This document shows, one piece after another, positions 1,285 through 34,069 of a stretch of 64,000 nucleotides of DNA; position 1 is the first letter of the stretch, and every line of letters begins with the position of its first letter. This DNA is from Sulfolobales archaeon. Lineage in GTDB: Archaea; Thermoproteota; Thermoprotei_A; Sulfolobales; AG1. The translations under genes and the position numbers were made by a program. Below the pieces are notes generated by a model that ran no database searches, was not told the DNA's origin, and worked only from the letters and a program-made list of their open reading frames with translations. The stretch lies in assembly GCA_038867615.1 (NCBI GenBank), contig JAWBYA010000007.1, forward strand, positions 1 to 64,000, read 5' to 3'.

Positions 1285-3330
1285 TTGAGGTTAAGGGTTG
1301 CTAGATATATTGGGGTTAGCGAGGGGGTTGCTGAGACCGGATATAGGGTTTTCCTAGATCTTCTTGGGCACGTGGTTGCTAGGCTTGGTGGGGATAAGAG
1401 AGATATTGCTGAGATCCTCGGTAGACTTGGGATCGCGATGCCCAAGGATCTTCTTAAAATTATTGCTAGGGATGTTGAGGATAAGATCAGGATCCTGGGT
1501 TCTGATGAGATCATGCGCTACCAGGAGATCGTTGCAGAGATCCTTGCAGAAACGCGTGGCACTAGGCAGCTTGGTTCTTCACTAATATATGCCGCTAGGG
1601 TTGCTTCGATCCTTGCTAGCAGCCTTGTTAGTAGCAGGGATCTAGTGCTCGGCGATCCATTTGTGGGTAGTGGGTTGATTATTAGAAGGATTGTTGATTC
1701 CTTGGGCTCTGGGAGGGTTTCCAGAGTATGGGGGTTGGGGTCTAACCCCTTAGGATCTCTTGCGGCTTACGCCTCGCTTATAGATGTTCTCGATCCTGGC
1801 AGGGTTTCTATCCTTGTACGTGATCCTTTTGACGAGATCTATAGATCCTTCTCCTCTAATGATTGGCAGCAATATAGCTCGGATGTCGTGCTAGTAAACC
1901 CGATCTTCCTCGAGGATGATAGGGTTTTGAGGGAGAGGCTTCCAGAGATCTATAGAACGCTTCTCCTCCTAGGATATGGAGAGTATGTGATTAAGAGGAA
2001 GCTAAGGCTCTCAACAGCATCCATTCTCCTCGCGGATAGTGTTTTGAAACCAGGAGGGGTTCTAATAGCATTCACCCCAGCGTATACCCTCTACAGGATT
2101 TCGAGTGCCGGTGTTAGGATTATTCTGAGGGATAGGTATAGTGTTGCCGCGATCCTTGAGGGACCTGTAACCTCTTTCTCGGGGAAGAGATCTCTGAAGG
2201 AGGTTGTGATCGCTGCCCGTAAAGCCAGGCTACCTGGCTGGGAGACGGTATTGATAAGGATCGATTCTCCAAGCGGTATAGAGGATATCGTGAAAACCCT
2301 TAGAGGGCGGAGTGGCGAGGAGGTTTATGTGAACAGGATAGCCCTGAGATCTCTGTGGGGTTCTGCCCAGAGGAGCTGGATCCATTTCTTCCGGCTCGGC
2401 GGATATGATGAGAGGTTTGTAGAGATCTTCAGGGATCTTATGGATAGCGGTAGGCTTGCAGAGCTTAGGAGTGTTGCGAGAGATATTGTTATAAAGAAGG
2501 GTATTCTTATCAGGGCTCCAAGGTTCTTTATACTCCCCAACAGGTATTGGGGTATAAGGTATAGGGATAGATCCTCTACTGTGATTTTCAATAAAGAGGA
2601 TCTCAGCGAGCTTGAGATAAGCAACGAGAACCTCTTACCCATTATCAGGAGGTCTAAGAAAAAGAGAGGACCTTATGGTCTAAGGCTTGTTGAGTCTCCA
2701 GAGCATTATATCTTATCAATACCTCCAAAGAGTCTCGGGAGAATCGATAGGGATATTGTTAAATATATAGAATGGGGGCTTAGATCCCGTGTTGTCGAGG
2801 GTGTGGTGAGGATCTATGGTGATAAGTGGTATAGCTATGCCTATAAAGAGATCAATGCTAGAAGACCCATAGCAGATCTCTTTGTCTCGAGAGCCGTGTG
2901 GAAGAGTACAAAGATGCATGGTGCTAACGCTTTGATGGTTGATAAACCAGCCCTCGCCGGGGATAGCTTCTTCGCCGTAATCGGGGGTGAGAAGGGTTTG
3001 AGATGCTTCCTCACAGTCTGGTTTAACAGCACCTTCTTCCTCTACATGTTCTCGAGGATCGGGAAGATTCTTGATCATAGGTGGGGGATGATCTCAAGCG
3101 AGGATTTCCTCTCACTACCAGCTCCAAGGATTATTGGTAGGGATATCTATAGATATGCTGAGGAGATCATATCTAAATACGGCTCCCAACAACTCCCCCC
3201 ACTCTCAACCCAGCTGAGTGAGGGTAGCAGGGTTAGGGATGAGATAGACTCGCTAGTATCATGGCTGCTAGGGCTGGGGGATGAGGAGATTAGGGGTATG
3301 AGGAGAGGTCTCCTAGAGATCCTTCCCTAG
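1285..3330 (+). CDS. N6-adenine DNA methyltransferase-like protein (gamma class/Eco57I-like) with degenerate motifs
   Basis: Motif I DPFVGSG; motif IV reads VNPIF instead of NPP(Y/F); LKPGG motif; long C-terminal TRD-like region. Confidence 0.7.
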   Translation: MRLRVARYIGVSEGVAETGYRVFLDLLGHVVARLGGDKRDIAEILGRLGIAMPKDLLKIIARDVEDKIRILGSDEIMRYQEIVAEILAETRGTRQLGSSLIYAARVASILASSLVSSRDLVLGDPFVGSGLIIRRIVDSLGSGRVSRVWGLGSNPLGSLAAYASLIDVLDPGRVSILVRDPFDEIYRSFSSNDWQQYSSDVVLVNPIFLEDDRVLRERLPEIYRTLLLLGYGEYVIKRKLRLSTASILLADSVLKPGGVLIAFTPAYTLYRISSAGVRIILRDRYSVAAILEGPVTSFSGKRSLKEVVIAARKARLPGWETVLIRIDSPSGIEDIVKTLRGRSGEEVYVNRIALRSLWGSAQRSWIHFFRLGGYDERFVEIFRDLMDSGRLAELRSVARDIVIKKGILIRAPRFFILPNRYWGIRYRDRSSTVIFNKEDLSELEISNENLLPIIRRSKKKRGPYGLRLVESPEHYILSIPPKSLGRIDRDIVKYIEWGLRSRVVEGVVRIYGDKWYSYAYKEINARRPIADLFVSRAVWKSTKMHGANALMVDKPALAGDSFFAVIGGEKGLRCFLTVWFNSTFFLYMFSRIGKILDHRWGMISSEDFLSLPAPRIIGRDIYRYAEEIISKYGSQQLPPLSTQLSEGSRVRDEIDSLVSWLLGLGDEEIRGMRRGLLEILP

Positions 3331-3331
3331 C

Positions 3332-4606
3332 TTAGCATGAGGAGAATCTACATGAATCCTCGTTACCTGTAGCTGGCTTCTTAGCACTCGGAGTTATTCT
3401 TGCTAGGGTTTCTCCAAGCCTCTCTATCTCCTCCTCCAGGTTATATATATGGGGGCTTGCCCTCACACTCTTCTCTATCCCGAGGCTCTTGTGGAGTGGG
3501 TATGCACAGTGATGCCCAGATCTAACGGCTATTCCCTCGAGGTCTAGTTGGAATGCTAGTTGGTGTGGATCTATCCCCTTTATGTTGAAGCTCAGAACGC
3601 CTGTTCCTTTCTCGGGGGGTGGGCTGTAGATCTCGATCCTATCCTCTAGATATTCCCTCAAGATCTTCTCCCCATATGCTTGGAGCCTTCTGAGATAGCT
3701 TAGCACGTTATCCATCCCTATCTCTCTGAGGAACCTGGCTGCCTCGCCAAGCCCCACGATCCCCTCTATATTGGGTGTTCCTGGAACGAATCTCCAGGGC
3801 ATGTTTTCGAATACAACCTCAAGGCTCTCGGGATCTATTTTCACTATCATACCACTCCCAGCCTTTCCGGGTTCGAGCCTCTCTCCAAGATCTTTTCTCA
3901 GGTATAGAACCCCGGTTCCTGAGGGGCCGAACATTTTGTGTCCGCTGAATACACCAGCGTCTATCCCTAGTTCTTTTACATCGACCTTCATGTGGGATAT
4001 GCTCTGGGCTAGGTCTCCAATGCATAGGGCTCCTTCTTTTGATGCGATGCCACATATCTCTCTTATGGGGTTTATAACGCCGTTCACGTTGCTCACATGG
4101 ACTGCGATAACAGCTTTGATCCTTCCGATCTTCTCGAATTTCTCTTTAAGAGACTCTATGCTTACCTCCCCATACCTATTAACATCGATCCACACGATCC
4201 TGCACCCCCTGAGCCTGCACACATATCTCCAAGGCATTATAGTGCTGTGATGCTCAGCCCTGGTAAGGGCTATATAGTCACCCTCACCAAGGCTTGGGGC
4301 TAGGGTTAGGGCTATCATGTTCATAGCATCAGTAGAATTAAACGTCGGTACAACCTCCTCAGGATCAGAGCCTATGAGCCTCGCTATCGATTCGAGAGAC
4401 TCCTCAACAACCCTTGTAGCTTCGAGGGAGAGGCTATACACACCTCTCCTAACTGTCGCATAGCTCTTCTCATAGAAGTTCTTAACAGCCTCTATAACAG
4501 ATCTAGGCTTAGGCGTTGTAGCATTATTATCTAAATAGATATACCCTTTCTTCTCCAGCTCCAGGATCTCGGGGAACTCCCCCCTGACCCTGCGGGGATC
4601 TAGCAC
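3332..4606 (-). CDS. sufS: Cysteine desulfurase, SufS family
   Basis: YLDNNATT, FSGHKMFGPSG (PLP lysine), VRSGHHCA catalytic Cys motif. Confidence 0.93.
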   Translation of the reverse strand: MLDPRRVRGEFPEILELEKKGYIYLDNNATTPKPRSVIEAVKNFYEKSYATVRRGVYSLSLEATRVVEESLESIARLIGSDPEEVVPTFNSTDAMNMIALTLAPSLGEGDYIALTRAEHHSTIMPWRYVCRLRGCRIVWIDVNRYGEVSIESLKEKFEKIGRIKAVIAVHVSNVNGVINPIREICGIASKEGALCIGDLAQSISHMKVDVKELGIDAGVFSGHKMFGPSGTGVLYLRKDLGERLEPGKAGSGMIVKIDPESLEVVFENMPWRFVPGTPNIEGIVGLGEAARFLREIGMDNVLSYLRRLQAYGEKILREYLEDRIEIYSPPPEKGTGVLSFNIKGIDPHQLAFQLDLEGIAVRSGHHCAYPLHKSLGIEKSVRASPHIYNLEEEIERLGETLARITPSAKKPATGNEDSCRFSSC

Positions 4607-31159: not shown

Positions 31160-32317
31160 TTGGCGGCTTATATGTTTAGGAGGGCTGAGTTTTGGGATAA
31201 ACCCTTGATCGTTTTCTGGGAGGTTACGAGAGCATGCCCTCTAGCATGTCTTCATTGTAGGGCTGAGGCTATACTTAAGCCTCTTCCTGGGGAGCTGAGT
31301 ACTGATGAGGGGCTCAGGCTTATTGAGGATATAGCTGGGTTTGGGAAGCCCTATCCCTTGCTTGTATTCACCGGAGGAGATCCTCTGGCTAGGGGTGATC
31401 TGTTACTCCTTGCCGAAAGGGCCAGGGATCTCGGGATCCCATTCGCCCTAGCCCCGGCCGTGTCTCCGAATCTGTGGAGCGGTGTTCTTGAGAAGCTCGT
31501 CGATATGGGTTTGAGGGCTATTTCGATAAGTATTGATAGCGGTTATGGGGATATTCATGACGCTATACGGGGTGTTAAAGGCGTTTTTGATGAGAGCTGG
31601 AGGGCTGTTAAGTATATAATGAGCCTGGGGGTCAGGGTTCAGGTTAATACTGTGGTTATGAGGAGCAATGTTCTATCAATGCCAAGGCTTGTTGGGCTTC
31701 TCCACAAGCACGGTGTGCCTGCGTGGGAGGTGTTTTTCCTGATAATGGTTGGTAGGGCTAGATCCTCGGTGCTTGAGGAGCTATCGCCAGAGGAGGCTGA
31801 GGATTTCCTCCACTTCCTCTACGATGTCTCGAGAACAGGGATTAGGGTGAGGACTGTGGAGGCTCCCTTCTTTAGAAGAATAGCTATAGTTAGAAGAGCT
31901 ATGGAGAGGGGTCTAGAACCGCCGGGTCGTTTCCCAAGGCCTGGGTATCTCTATAAGAGGCTTCTAGCAGATCTCACAGAGATCCTTGGTGAGAACGCTT
32001 TCGGCAAGCCGGCGCTTGAGATAACGCCTACGAGGGATGGGAGTGGCGTGATCTTTATAAGCTATTCAGGCGAGGTCTATCCAAGCGGTTTCACACCCTA
32101 CCCGGTTGGTAATGTGAGGAGGGAGAGTATTGTGGAGATCTATAGGAAGAGCCCTGTGCTTAAAATGATCAAGAGTGCTGGGTTTAGGGGTAGGTGTGGT
32201 GTTTGTGAGTTTAGATACATATGCGGCGGGAGCAGGGCTAGGGCTTATGCTTCTTCAGGAGATCCTTTGGGATCGGATCCTCTATGCCCATATATCCCCA
32301 GGGGGTATGGATCTTGA
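31160..32317 (+). CDS. Radical SAM/SPASM protein (AhbD/NirJ-like, alternative heme synthesis)
   Basis: WEVTRACPLACLHCRA; CGVCEFRYICGGSRARAY...DPLC. Confidence 0.82.
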   Translation: MAAYMFRRAEFWDKPLIVFWEVTRACPLACLHCRAEAILKPLPGELSTDEGLRLIEDIAGFGKPYPLLVFTGGDPLARGDLLLLAERARDLGIPFALAPAVSPNLWSGVLEKLVDMGLRAISISIDSGYGDIHDAIRGVKGVFDESWRAVKYIMSLGVRVQVNTVVMRSNVLSMPRLVGLLHKHGVPAWEVFFLIMVGRARSSVLEELSPEEAEDFLHFLYDVSRTGIRVRTVEAPFFRRIAIVRRAMERGLEPPGRFPRPGYLYKRLLADLTEILGENAFGKPALEITPTRDGSGVIFISYSGEVYPSGFTPYPVGNVRRESIVEIYRKSPVLKMIKSAGFRGRCGVCEFRYICGGSRARAYASSGDPLGSDPLCPYIPRGYGS

Positions 32318-33471
32318 TCCCCGTCTCTGTCCTTGTATCTGGTAGGGGTACTGTGTCATTCAAGATCAAGGGCGCCCATAGCGTTAACACTCCGCCTAGT
32401 TTTAGTAGCGAGTTTAGACCGATCATAGCTTGGAATATAACGAGGGCTTGTAATCTCAAATGCCTCCACTGCTACATAGATGCTGGATCACCCTCGCCAC
32501 ATGAGCTGAGTACCGAGGAGGCTCTAAATGTTATAGATCAGATCAGGGATGTTGGCTCACCACTAATAATATTCACCGGAGGAGAGCCCCTGCTCAGAAG
32601 AGATCTCTTCACACTTGCATCGAGAGCGGCTAGCCATGGGATCAAGCTTGTCCTCAGTACTAACGGTACGTTAATAGATAAGGCGATGGCTAGAAGGATC
32701 CTTGACACCGGGTTCCAGTATGTTGGCATCTCTATAGATAGTGTTAACCCTGAGTGGCATGATAGCTTTAGAGGCGTTAGGGGGTCTTTCAAAGCCGCTG
32801 TCGAGGGGGCTGTAAACCTAGTCGATCTCGGTGTGAGTGTAGGGCTTAGATATACTATAACAAGGTATAATATCTCAGAAGCACCCAGAGTGATCGAGCT
32901 CGCATCATCGATAGGGGCTAGGAGGGTTACATTCTACCACCTATCCTACGTGGGCAGGGCTCTCAAACTCCCCAGGGACTGGATACCGCTTCCAGAGCAG
33001 TACAGGATCTTCATGGATAGGGTGATAGAGCTTGCCGAGAAATACTCCGGGGTAATAGAGATCGAGACAACACTAGGCCCCTTCGACGGGATCTATATAG
33101 CTATAAAGAAAGCTAGAGAAGGTGAAGAGATGAAAAGAATACTGGAGTTTGTCAAAAGATCAGGAGGTTGTGGGAGAAAAATAATATCGATCTTCCCCGA
33201 TGGAAGTGTAAAACCATGCCAGTTCATAGACTTCATAGACCTCGGGAATATTAGGAAGGAGCATCTAAGCAGCATAATAAGAAACCTCGAGAAAGAACCC
33301 TACAGAGTATTCATAGAACCCTGGAAATATGTGAGGAGAGGGAAATGCGCCCAGTGCCAATTCCTACAATACTGCGGCGGGGGAGACAGGGTCAGAGCAT
33401 ACTATCTAGAAGGGTCGCTAGACGCCAGCGACCCGTACTGCCCAATACCAGTCCTCGCCAGCCACACATAG
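32284..33471 (+). CDS. Radical SAM/SPASM protein (AhbC/NirJ1-like)
   Basis: WNITRACNLKCLHCY; FYHL.YVGR; SPASM cysteines. Confidence 0.82.
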   Translation: MPIYPQGVWILIPVSVLVSGRGTVSFKIKGAHSVNTPPSFSSEFRPIIAWNITRACNLKCLHCYIDAGSPSPHELSTEEALNVIDQIRDVGSPLIIFTGGEPLLRRDLFTLASRAASHGIKLVLSTNGTLIDKAMARRILDTGFQYVGISIDSVNPEWHDSFRGVRGSFKAAVEGAVNLVDLGVSVGLRYTITRYNISEAPRVIELASSIGARRVTFYHLSYVGRALKLPRDWIPLPEQYRIFMDRVIELAEKYSGVIEIETTLGPFDGIYIAIKKAREGEEMKRILEFVKRSGGCGRKIISIFPDGSVKPCQFIDFIDLGNIRKEHLSSIIRNLEKEPYRVFIEPWKYVRRGKCAQCQFLQYCGGGDRVRAYYLEGSLDASDPYCPIPVLASHT

Positions 33472-33650
33472 ATCGCAATAAATCCCGCACCAACATCTTC
33501 TCCAAGATCTCTTCAACCTAACAGATCTTGCCGGGATGAGCTAAAGCTCTATCCCATCAATATAGAACTGGTGAAAAGGACAGGTATCCATATACATTAT
33601 AGAAATAAAAACGTTGGCTAATTTGGTATAGAAACTAGGTAAAAATAGGC

Positions 33651-33869
33651 GGGAGGGAGCGGCAGACATATTATTCCTAACCTAGTTCCCATACCTCTTG
33701 GCCCTGGTTTCTCTCTAGGATCCTGAGGATACCCCGCGGTGATATCCCCGGGATCCTAGAGAGCTTCTCCAGGACAATCCTAGGGTTACCCCTAGGTTTG
33801 CCCTGGAGTTTCCCAGGGTTGCGAGGTATGGTTTTTAGGTTAGGAGGCGCCTGTCTGTCGCCCCCTCCC
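33651..33869 (-). ncRNA. Unassigned 219-nt highly structured RNA (rod ending in three-way junction)
   Basis: Nested complementary helices, G-U wobbles and A-rich loops favour the minus strand; GUAA tetraloop; upstream CGAAAACATATA, downstream TATTTTT. Confidence 0.7.
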
Positions 33870-34069
33870 AAAAAAGTAGTGGTTGGGAGATTGGTATATG
33901 TTTTCGTACCAATAATTCCACGTTGATCCCATATGATCATGGGTATTACTATAAATACCCCTAGCATATATAATTATTATTTTATCTGGTATTACCATTG
34001 ATAATTTTATATATTAGCATCTTTATGCATGGTTTTAATCCTCTTAGCTTTTATAGTTAGGTGTAGATC

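Follow-up and report, generated by a model that had tools for sequence, protein, structure and literature searches.

A lineage-specific, rod-shaped and probably circular non-coding RNA in uncultured hot-spring Sulfolobales

Circular RNAs of archaea are known mainly as by-products or intermediates of splicing at bulge-helix-bulge (BHB) motifs, to which the circular C/D box guides have to be added. A BHB motif consists of two 3-nt bulges on opposite strands with a 4-bp helix between them, the cuts being placed within the bulges, and circles that depend on it are excised tRNA and rRNA introns, the circular pre-16S and pre-23S intermediates and, reportedly, the permuted signal recognition particle (SRP) RNA of Thermoproteus. 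We know of no enzyme to which the circularisation of C/D box guides in Sulfolobales can be assigned. Here we describe a structured RNA encoded on the minus strand of the first 64,000 nt of contig JAWBYA010000007.1 (contig C7 of assembly GCA_038867615.1 from a Sulfolobales archaeon, genome G000); this whole stretch is called the window, and RNA positions are counted on the minus strand from G1 (33869). The locus is a lineage-specific, stand-alone and previously undescribed gene for a structured non-coding RNA (ncRNA), whose RNA appears to be processed inside its terminal stem and whose 204-nt product is probably a covalently closed circle, as judged from a contig signature.

The closest described RNAs are the Sulfolobales circular ncRNAs, comprising C/D box sRNAs and others of unknown function (Danan et al., 2012; PMC3326292). 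They resemble the RNA described here in being small dedicated ncRNAs with ends held by a terminal stem and apparently joined, with no BHB motif and no match to a Pab1020-type ligase in the host order. The present RNA differs in having neither C/D boxes nor a kink-turn (K-turn), in its length (204 nt compared to roughly 30-130 nt) and almost fully double-stranded form, in ends that lie inside a continuous helix with 7-8 nt to lose per side, and in belonging to an unrelated sequence family confined to one genus. With the BHB-dependent circles it shares the removal of a processing stem formed by the flanks, the circularisation of the inner part and the presence of RtcB; in contrast to them, no BHB can be drawn here, the terminal stem is a perfect 18-bp helix in the G003-type variant, and the RNA is not permuted and lies outside rRNA and tRNA. 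No description of it was found in the accessible texts, supplements excepted, on archaeal circular RNAs, nor anything under the name 'Desulfurococcaceae archaeon AG1', and its genus was not seen among the organisms named in those parts of the papers.

Parts of the stretch were detected in 20 public runs, the DNA runs being hot-spring, sediment or lake metagenomes, and four RNA runs were aligned. Two of these, hot-spring metatranscriptomes from two studies (X15 and X20), led to one contig each that covered the RNA body only, with a depth of 10.2 and 18.1, respectively, and zero depth in the flanks 33451-33658 and 33863-34050. Because DNA contamination would not end at the stem, we read this as expression in situ of an abundant stable RNA. 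The X15 contig has 234 letters, with letters 1-204 corresponding to 33659-33862 and letters 205-234 to 33659-33688 again, on the same strand and with 0 mismatches. In terms of the RNA, position 211 is joined to position 8, and neither the outer 7 bp of the stem nor the trailer is left. The length of 234 (204 + 30) is expected when a closed cycle of 31-mers is written as a contig, and the X20 contig shares the 33659 boundary. A snap-back artefact was rejected in favour of a wrap-around, since the repeat is direct and mismatch-free to 33659-33688; the reverse complement of 33833-33862 would diverge from 33659-33688 after ~10 letters. When the 204-mer was folded as a circle, its architecture was fully preserved and a small loop closed it, at 80 °C as well; long open frames in the contig of the RNA run cross the junction. 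The body was thus present without flanks in two of the four RNA runs, and for circularity, which an earlier preliminary description made from the sequence alone had listed among the properties to be checked, one contig gave a first positive sign.

The minimum free energy (MFE) fold of the minus strand at 33651-33869 amounted to -149.7 kcal/mol compared to a mean of -76.7 for 200 dinucleotide shuffles (z = -17.8, with 0 shuffles folding as well). All helices listed in the preliminary description were recovered in this fold, its GC-rich island in AT-rich flanks was found as well (53-56% GC in the RNA body, 24-31% in the flanks), and its observation of a highly structured RNA locus is confirmed; a GC-island scan of the genome was uninformative because the genome itself has 46% GC. 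The bubble given there as 7x7 has to be corrected to a 6x6 loop, because U25-A195 is a pair that covaries with C-G in relatives. Homologues fall into four clades, namely A (219 nt; G000, G002 and G003), B (122 nt; G001 and one metagenome contig), C (122 nt; six metagenome contigs with three sequence variants) and D (120 nt; two metagenome contigs). Most relatives carry a rod of 120-122 nt without the three-way junction of clade A. These short forms are plain rods of an 18-bp terminal stem, the 6x6 loop, a 10-bp stem, a symmetric loop of 3-4 nt and a helix of ~21 bp with a GUAA cap. The three-way junction stems from a 97-nt insertion restricted to clade A, in place of which the relatives have a simple helix capped by GUAA, and so does not belong to the conserved core, which consists of the terminal stem, the invariant 6x6 loop (GGCGCC / AYAAUA), the 10-bp stem and the small second loop (Table 1).

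An alignment of 8 sequences from the four clades, all of one genus, was used for covariation analysis, which the preliminary description had proposed as a check. Here 91.6% of the cells were paired and 7 of 49 pairs were altered on both sides (7-213, 11-209, 25-195, 33-187, 41-179, 44-176 and 50-170); the covariation score was reached by 0 of 500 shuffles, and slid registers yielded at most one two-sided change. RNAalifold on five short forms led independently to the same rod. The strongest constraint, with invariant sequence beyond mere pairing, was observed for the inner part of the terminal stem together with the 6x6 loop and the stem that follows it, and the tip tolerates compensatory changes and the 97-nt insertion. 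Unpaired nucleotides of the short form number only ~30 and are confined to its two symmetric loops and the tetraloop. As a separate observation, the outer-stem strands (RNA 1-7 and 213-219; window 33863-33869 and 33651-33657) pair a Shine-Dalgarno (SD)-like GGAGG with an anti-SD-like CCUCC, which may be a mere GC clamp.

Table 1. Features of the RNA gene and its surroundings in window coordinates.
Feature	Position	Strand	Basis
Part recovered from RNA libraries (RNA positions 8-211, 204 nt); presumed mature, probably circular RNA	33659..33862	minus	Contigs of X15 and X20
Structured RNA gene as encoded (G1 to C219, 219 nt; precursor body)	33651..33869	minus	MFE fold; full-length homologues at 96% identity in G002 and G003; matched by covariance models R1 and R2
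BRE-like CGAAAA and TATA-like CATATACC (together CGAAAACATATACC), ending 23 nt before G1	33893..33906	minus	Sequence; conserved spacing; calibrated on SRP and RNase P RNA genes
Conserved upstream region (TAATACCCAT ... GATCA ... ATTATT), moves with the RNA gene between genomic contexts	33907..33950	minus	Comparison of clades
T5 run 5 nt past the stem, likely archaeal terminator	33641..33645	minus	Sequence; T-rich trailers in clades A-C, weak in D
Outer terminal stem, 5' strand GGGAGGG; putative processing stem	33863..33869	minus	Fold; missing from RNA-library contigs; pair 7-213 G-C to A-U in clade D
Outer terminal stem, 3' strand UCCCUCCC	33651..33658	minus	Fold; missing from RNA-library contigs
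6x6 internal loop, 5' strand GGCGCC	33846..33851	minus	Invariant in 8/8 aligned sequences
6x6 internal loop, 3' strand AYAAUA (AUAAUA here)	33669..33674	minus	8-sequence alignment
P2 5' strand, 10 bp, pairs with 33675-33684; two covarying pairs	33836..33845	minus	Pair 25-195: CG in 4, UA in 4; pair 33-187: UA in 6, CG in 2
P2 3' strand	33675..33684	minus	8-sequence alignment
Second internal loop, 5' strand AAAA and 3' strand GAAC	33832..33835 (5'), 33685-33688 (3')	minus	Fold and alignment
Apical insertion, 97 nt, clade A only: three-way junction with GUAA-capped hairpin 33767-33808 and 23-bp hairpin 33711-33763	33717..33813	minus	Alignments and fold

The promoter and downstream T-run of the preliminary description were found again, and the promoter, made up of a B recognition element (BRE) and a TATA box, is conserved at fixed spacing in the four clades, where the distance from the end of a AAAANNTATAMC box to G1 is 22-24 nt. 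Archaeal TATA boxes have their centre near -26/-27, and in the genome's own SRP and RNase P RNA genes a TATA-like octamer ends 20-21 nt before the first RNA base. Calibrated on these two genes, transcription probably starts at G1 or immediately before it, G1 being the first purine that follows a T-run, and not at G8. A further ~75 nt upstream of the TATA box can be aligned in all four clades, despite differing flanking genes. A perfect short inverted repeat (GGGTATT-TATAGT-AATACCC) was also seen at 33943-33962, ~75-95 nt upstream of the RNA, where it overlaps the conserved TAATACCCAT box.

How the ends of the RNA could be made was considered by placing known motifs at the presumed cuts. Neither geometry of a BHB fits there by hand placement, and a route through the splicing endonuclease is unsupported because the central 4-bp helices it requires are mismatched and do not form; the RNA was thus rejected as a BHB-processed circle, the cuts lying 1 nt apart across a continuous helix. 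An RNase III-type cut with a 2-nt 3' overhang was rejected as well, as it does not fit the junction. The pathway that we propose would begin with transcription from the gene's own BRE/TATA promoter, starting at or next to G1 (33869) and stopping in the T-run at 33641-33645. The transcript would fold to a rod of the 18-bp terminal stem, the 6x6 loop, the 10-bp stem, the second loop and the GUAA-capped distal helix, the tip of clade A additionally carrying the 97-nt two-hairpin module. Subsequently, the outer 7 bp of the terminal stem would act as a processing stem and be removed, and G8 and C211 would be joined to give the 204-nt closed RNA; the short-form relatives would yield circles of ~105-107 nt if cut at the same places. 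Joining would proceed without a BHB, either by RtcB, which is encoded in the genome, or by the still elusive activity that circularises C/D box sRNAs in Sulfolobales. The invariant loop and its flanking helices would be the likely protein docking site, and the RNA would serve as a heat- and exonuclease-resistant ribonucleoprotein (RNP) scaffold or as a decoy.

Taken as a whole, this pathway of own promoter, stable rod, outer-stem removal, BHB-free joining to a circle and protein docking appears moderately probable to us. More tentative, and to be called possible rather than probable, is the wider claim that a dedicated chromosomal gene encodes a viroid-sized, almost fully double-stranded circle, cut inside a perfect helix, joined without a BHB and equipped with a protein-capturing loop, which would make both the biogenesis route and this class of archaeal circular RNA new. 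With regard to function, a protein-binding platform on a stable scaffold is most likely, because invariant sequence at the loop and the flanking stems together with a tolerant tip fit that pattern; the logic of protein binding would be similar to that of 6S or Y RNA, to neither of which family this RNA belongs. An antisense action seems unlikely, since so little of the short form is unpaired in the predicted fold. If the pathway is true, a single-copy gene with a rod-shaped circle, its ends inside a perfect helix, as the main product would offer a clean and easily assayed substrate for finding the missing cleavage and ligation activity, and this lineage, of which no member has been cultured, would gain another RNP candidate. 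Should the circle prove to be an artefact, a new and strongly constrained ncRNA family is left, with a sharply defined conserved loop usable as bait.

Several observations weigh against this pathway. The presumed cuts, between positions 7 and 8 and between 211 and 212, face each other with a 1-nt offset in a fully paired helix, and to our knowledge no archaeal endonuclease cuts in such a way. In the assembly, which is 94% complete, no Pab1020-type ligase was detected. The family control was also without a match in S. acidocaldarius, for which circular C/D box RNAs have been reported in the work cited above (PMC3326292), and so there is a precedent in Sulfolobales for circularisation independent of both BHB and Pab1020. 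The other RNA runs, X22 (raw reads, ~3% of the run examined) and X24, gave 0 alignments, which counts neither for nor against expression, and all data on the ends come from the X15 and X20 contigs. The homologues are close relatives that have diverged little, all four clades belonging to one genus. An almost equally stable fold is obtained for the plus strand (-144.3 kcal/mol, z = -13.7), the contigs are strand-blind, and the alignment contains G.U pairs and A.C mismatches in about equal numbers, so that the comparison is silent on strand; the assignment of the minus strand as the presumably transcribed one therefore depends on promoter and terminator. Protein binding is deduced from the pattern of constraint.

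The junction itself was present in one contig of one run, with a short side of 30 letters at a bridging threshold of 31, and 0 joints were called. Reverse transcriptase (RT) template switching between juxtaposed ends of linear molecules could produce the same junction. The same ncRNA gene may thus give rise to a linear mature RNA (~nt 8-211 or longer), with the wrap-around resulting from RT template switching, library ligation or assembly. Adjacent ends, as in a stem-closed RNA, favour template switching, and the missing BHB at the ends and the missing Pab1020-type ligase match are in line with a linear product. Nevertheless, the contig measures exactly 204 + k-1 and its repeat is direct and without mismatches, the 33659 boundary was seen again in a second run from a different study, and neither contig contains the flanks with the outer stem strands. 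In addition, BHB-less circular ncRNAs are documented in Sulfolobales (PMC3326292). We consider a linear product unlikely, while taking it seriously, and keep the closed circle as the probable form.

A BLAST search of 41 related genomes showed that G002 and G003 each have a full-length copy (96% identity); it also gave a partial match in G001, whose copy is the 122-nt version of the RNA. Covariance model R1, run over the family, detected the RNA in 4 of 14 genomes, and model R2, run over the order, in 4 of 151 genomes and 1 of 59 genera, in searches that score only part of the first-look candidates under stricter filters and can miss weak relatives. All genome matches were within the genus to which the window belongs, where 4 of 6 genomes carry the RNA. 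The two others, G004 and G005, showed neither the RNA nor a PstS match (E ≤ 1e-20), with genomes that are 81% and 93% complete, so that absence is not established. A 20-nt degenerate pattern matched 10 records among species-representative genomes, two of which carry the RNA (a 'Sulfolobales archaeon' metagenome-assembled genome with the G002 sequence and 'Desulfurococcaceae archaeon AG1' with the G003 sequence), and 22 records among metagenome contigs, nine of which carry it (hot spring; one cut by the contig end). The other 8 of 10 genome and 13 of 22 metagenome matches were treated as chance, since they are bacterial or unknown and R1 gave no match at E ≤ 1. Among the searched genomes the RNA thus appears to be restricted to a single genus of uncultured hot-spring archaea, which is what the homologue search proposed in the preliminary description came to. 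The 'undescribed archaeal ncRNA class' suggested there holds for an undescribed, independently transcribed structured ncRNA (no Rfam family, conserved promoter, covarying helices, RNA-library contigs without flanks), but 'class' is too generous a word because the RNA is found in one genus only.

At the three loci of clades B, C and D that were examined (one each), pstS (TIGR00975, over cut-off) lies 150-700 nt downstream of the RNA on the same strand. In G000, pstS is located on contig C1 without an RNA copy upstream, and the RNA is unlinked from pstS in G000 and its two closest relatives. As the flanking genes differ among the clades and pstS is unlinked in G000, the unit of promoter and RNA is autonomous and has moved; the pstS synteny is presumably ancestral, with a move away from pstS in clade A. 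If the RNA acted in cis as a leader, or as a phosphate-linked regulator, of the pstS operon and sensed or controlled phosphate uptake, this would explain the synteny in the short forms, and RNA and pstS match also co-occur in G000 and G001 and are both missing in G004 and G005 (the pstS search left out G002 and G003). Moreover, a 9-mer, TATTGGTAC, precedes both the TATA box of the RNA and, twice, the start of pstS in G000. The RNA, however, has its own promoter and T-run, the promoter sequence close to pstS is conserved with or without the RNA, and the RNA-library contigs stop at the RNA body and do not reach pstS. Furthermore, the sister genus g2 has pstS, but upstream of it in three genomes no RNA was found even with filters off. 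The 9-mer itself occurs in 31 copies genome-wide compared to ~21 expected (1.5 times), the rest being in coding-like sequence, and is not clearly kept in clades B-D. A role as pstS leader or regulator is therefore improbable, and from the comparison of loci the RNA is regarded as a stand-alone gene, with the phosphate link, resting on ancestral synteny, co-absence in G004 and G005 and the shared TATTGGTAC, as the weaker alternative to a protein-binding function.

As an observation in its own right, the 9-mer is situated at window 33906-33914 on the minus strand, directly 5' of the BRE/TATA box, and within 70 nt upstream of the pstS start on the plus strand (G000, C1:266841 and C1:266873), and may be the site of a shared regulator. 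Small open reading frames (ORFs) next to the short forms were unrelated to one another.

Some features would also suit an element acting at the DNA level, such as a fold-back miniature inverted-repeat transposable element (MITE), a cruciform or recombination site, or an orphan IS200/IS605 (TnpB) guide-RNA cassette: both strands fold almost equally without wobble asymmetry, the unit of promoter and RNA occurs in two genomic contexts, and circular omega RNA isoforms exist in archaea (PMC12558985). But the locus is single copy in the 2.22-Mb assembly, a check named in the preliminary description, with the remaining BLAST matches not exceeding 35 nt (81% identity) and none with E < 0.4; a MITE or paralogues were rejected on this basis. 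No second genomic locus with the same GGGAGG...CCTCCC clamp and a strong fold was found, and viral contigs gave 0 matches with two patterns. The conserved fixed spacing of the promoter and the RNA-library contigs comprising the body without flanks also speak against a DNA-level element, as do two-sided changes that keep pairing in non-palindromic helices, too. An IS200/IS605 omega RNA was rejected, as the five TnpB-type genes are on C1, C2 and C6 with none on C7, and the neighbours of the RNA are radical SAM (rSAM) and CbiE genes. Archaeal omega RNAs are structured ncRNAs of a few hundred nt with a circular isoform (PMC12558985), as the RNA described here would be if circular, which differs from them in having no adjacent or same-contig tnpB, a single copy and no transposon ends. 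A DNA-level element is thus highly improbable.

Viroid-like circles and Obelisks of hot springs (PMC13096302) are alike in size range, GC-rich rod, apparent circularity and habitat. The RNA differs from them in being encoded by a single-copy chromosomal gene with an archaeal promoter and conserved synteny, with no ribozyme match and no ORF, and nothing points to its RNA-templated replication. A viroid-like RNA with a self-cleaving ribozyme was rejected, since no ribozyme family was found at E ≤ 10 (locus) or E ≤ 1 (short form). A protein-coding origin was rejected, too, as the 96-aa ORF at 33677-33967 had no Pfam match and the 97-nt difference between the forms is not a multiple of three.

In agreement with the preliminary description, no known RNA family was recognised. 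Rfam 15 at the gathering score gave no match in the whole 64-kb window, cmscan with 4227 Rfam families at E ≤ 10 led around the locus almost exclusively to weak models of animal or plant microRNA precursors, reflecting the long hairpins, and to the same kind of noise for the short form, and ARAGORN detected no tRNA or tmRNA. Archaea_SRP (RF01857) had no match at the locus at E ≤ 10, RNase P RNA (RF00373, RF02357) had none there either, and RNaseP-T gave weak matches elsewhere only. Because a canonical full-length SRP RNA (C3:74069-74377, 183.8 bits) and an RNase P RNA (RNaseP_arch, C3:167870-168156, 173.3 bits) are encoded elsewhere in the genome, both identities were rejected. Clade A alone resembles the S domain of archaeal SRP RNA (helices 5, 6 and 8) in its long stem leading to a three-way junction with two hairpins, one of them GNRA-capped. 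The echo of this domain noted earlier has to be given up, as it rests on that clade-specific junction, which is absent from most homologues; an Alu domain is missing, and the helix-8 loop motifs are not visible. Bacterial 6S RNA, the second echo, is likewise a rod-like, abundant and stable RNA with a conserved internal loop, and protein sequestration is a plausible shared logic. This echo is not supported either: the present RNA is archaeal, without an Rfam match including any 6S-type match at E ≤ 10, and its loop is only 6x6 without a large central or open-promoter-like bubble.

C/D box sRNAs carry boxes C (RUGAUGA) and D (CUGA), which form a K-turn, and were rejected since inspection of the 219-nt sequence revealed neither RUGAUGA nor CUGA. 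H/ACA sRNAs have a pocket, with a K-turn or K-loop placed in the upper stem, and carry an ACA on the 3' side of the lower stem; here the stem is followed by GCCUAUUUUU without ACA, and no tandem G.A was seen in the loops (inspection), which led to their rejection. That the RNA is a highly diverged member of a known family (SRP S-domain-like, 6S-like, type T RNase P, or H/ACA or C/D guide) is hardly credible, for although the long stem with two hairpins in clade A and a symmetric internal loop that could resemble a bubble or guide pocket would suit it, the scans of all Rfam families gave only hairpin noise for long and short form, SRP and RNase P RNA are present on C3 with no RNaseP-T match at the locus, most homologues lack the two-hairpin junction, and the box motifs are missing.

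With regard to the remaining neighbours, two tandem, overlapping rSAM/SPASM genes at window 31160-33471 flank the RNA on one side, the first belonging to the TIGR04053 family over cut-off and the second being nearest to NirJ1/AhbC and far below their cut-offs. The gene on the other side was assigned to CbiE over cut-off. The position between 'heme-synthesis radical SAM genes' and cbiE given in the preliminary description is hence correct for cbiE and for the rSAM neighbours, but the attribute 'heme-synthesis' is only loosely supported. Downstream of the rSAM orthologue in G005 (contig C39; L080, 2725-3832) lies a stretch of 1.1 kb without long ORFs, which contains two GC-rich islands (~2900-3050 and ~3600-3750) dissimilar to the RNA described here.

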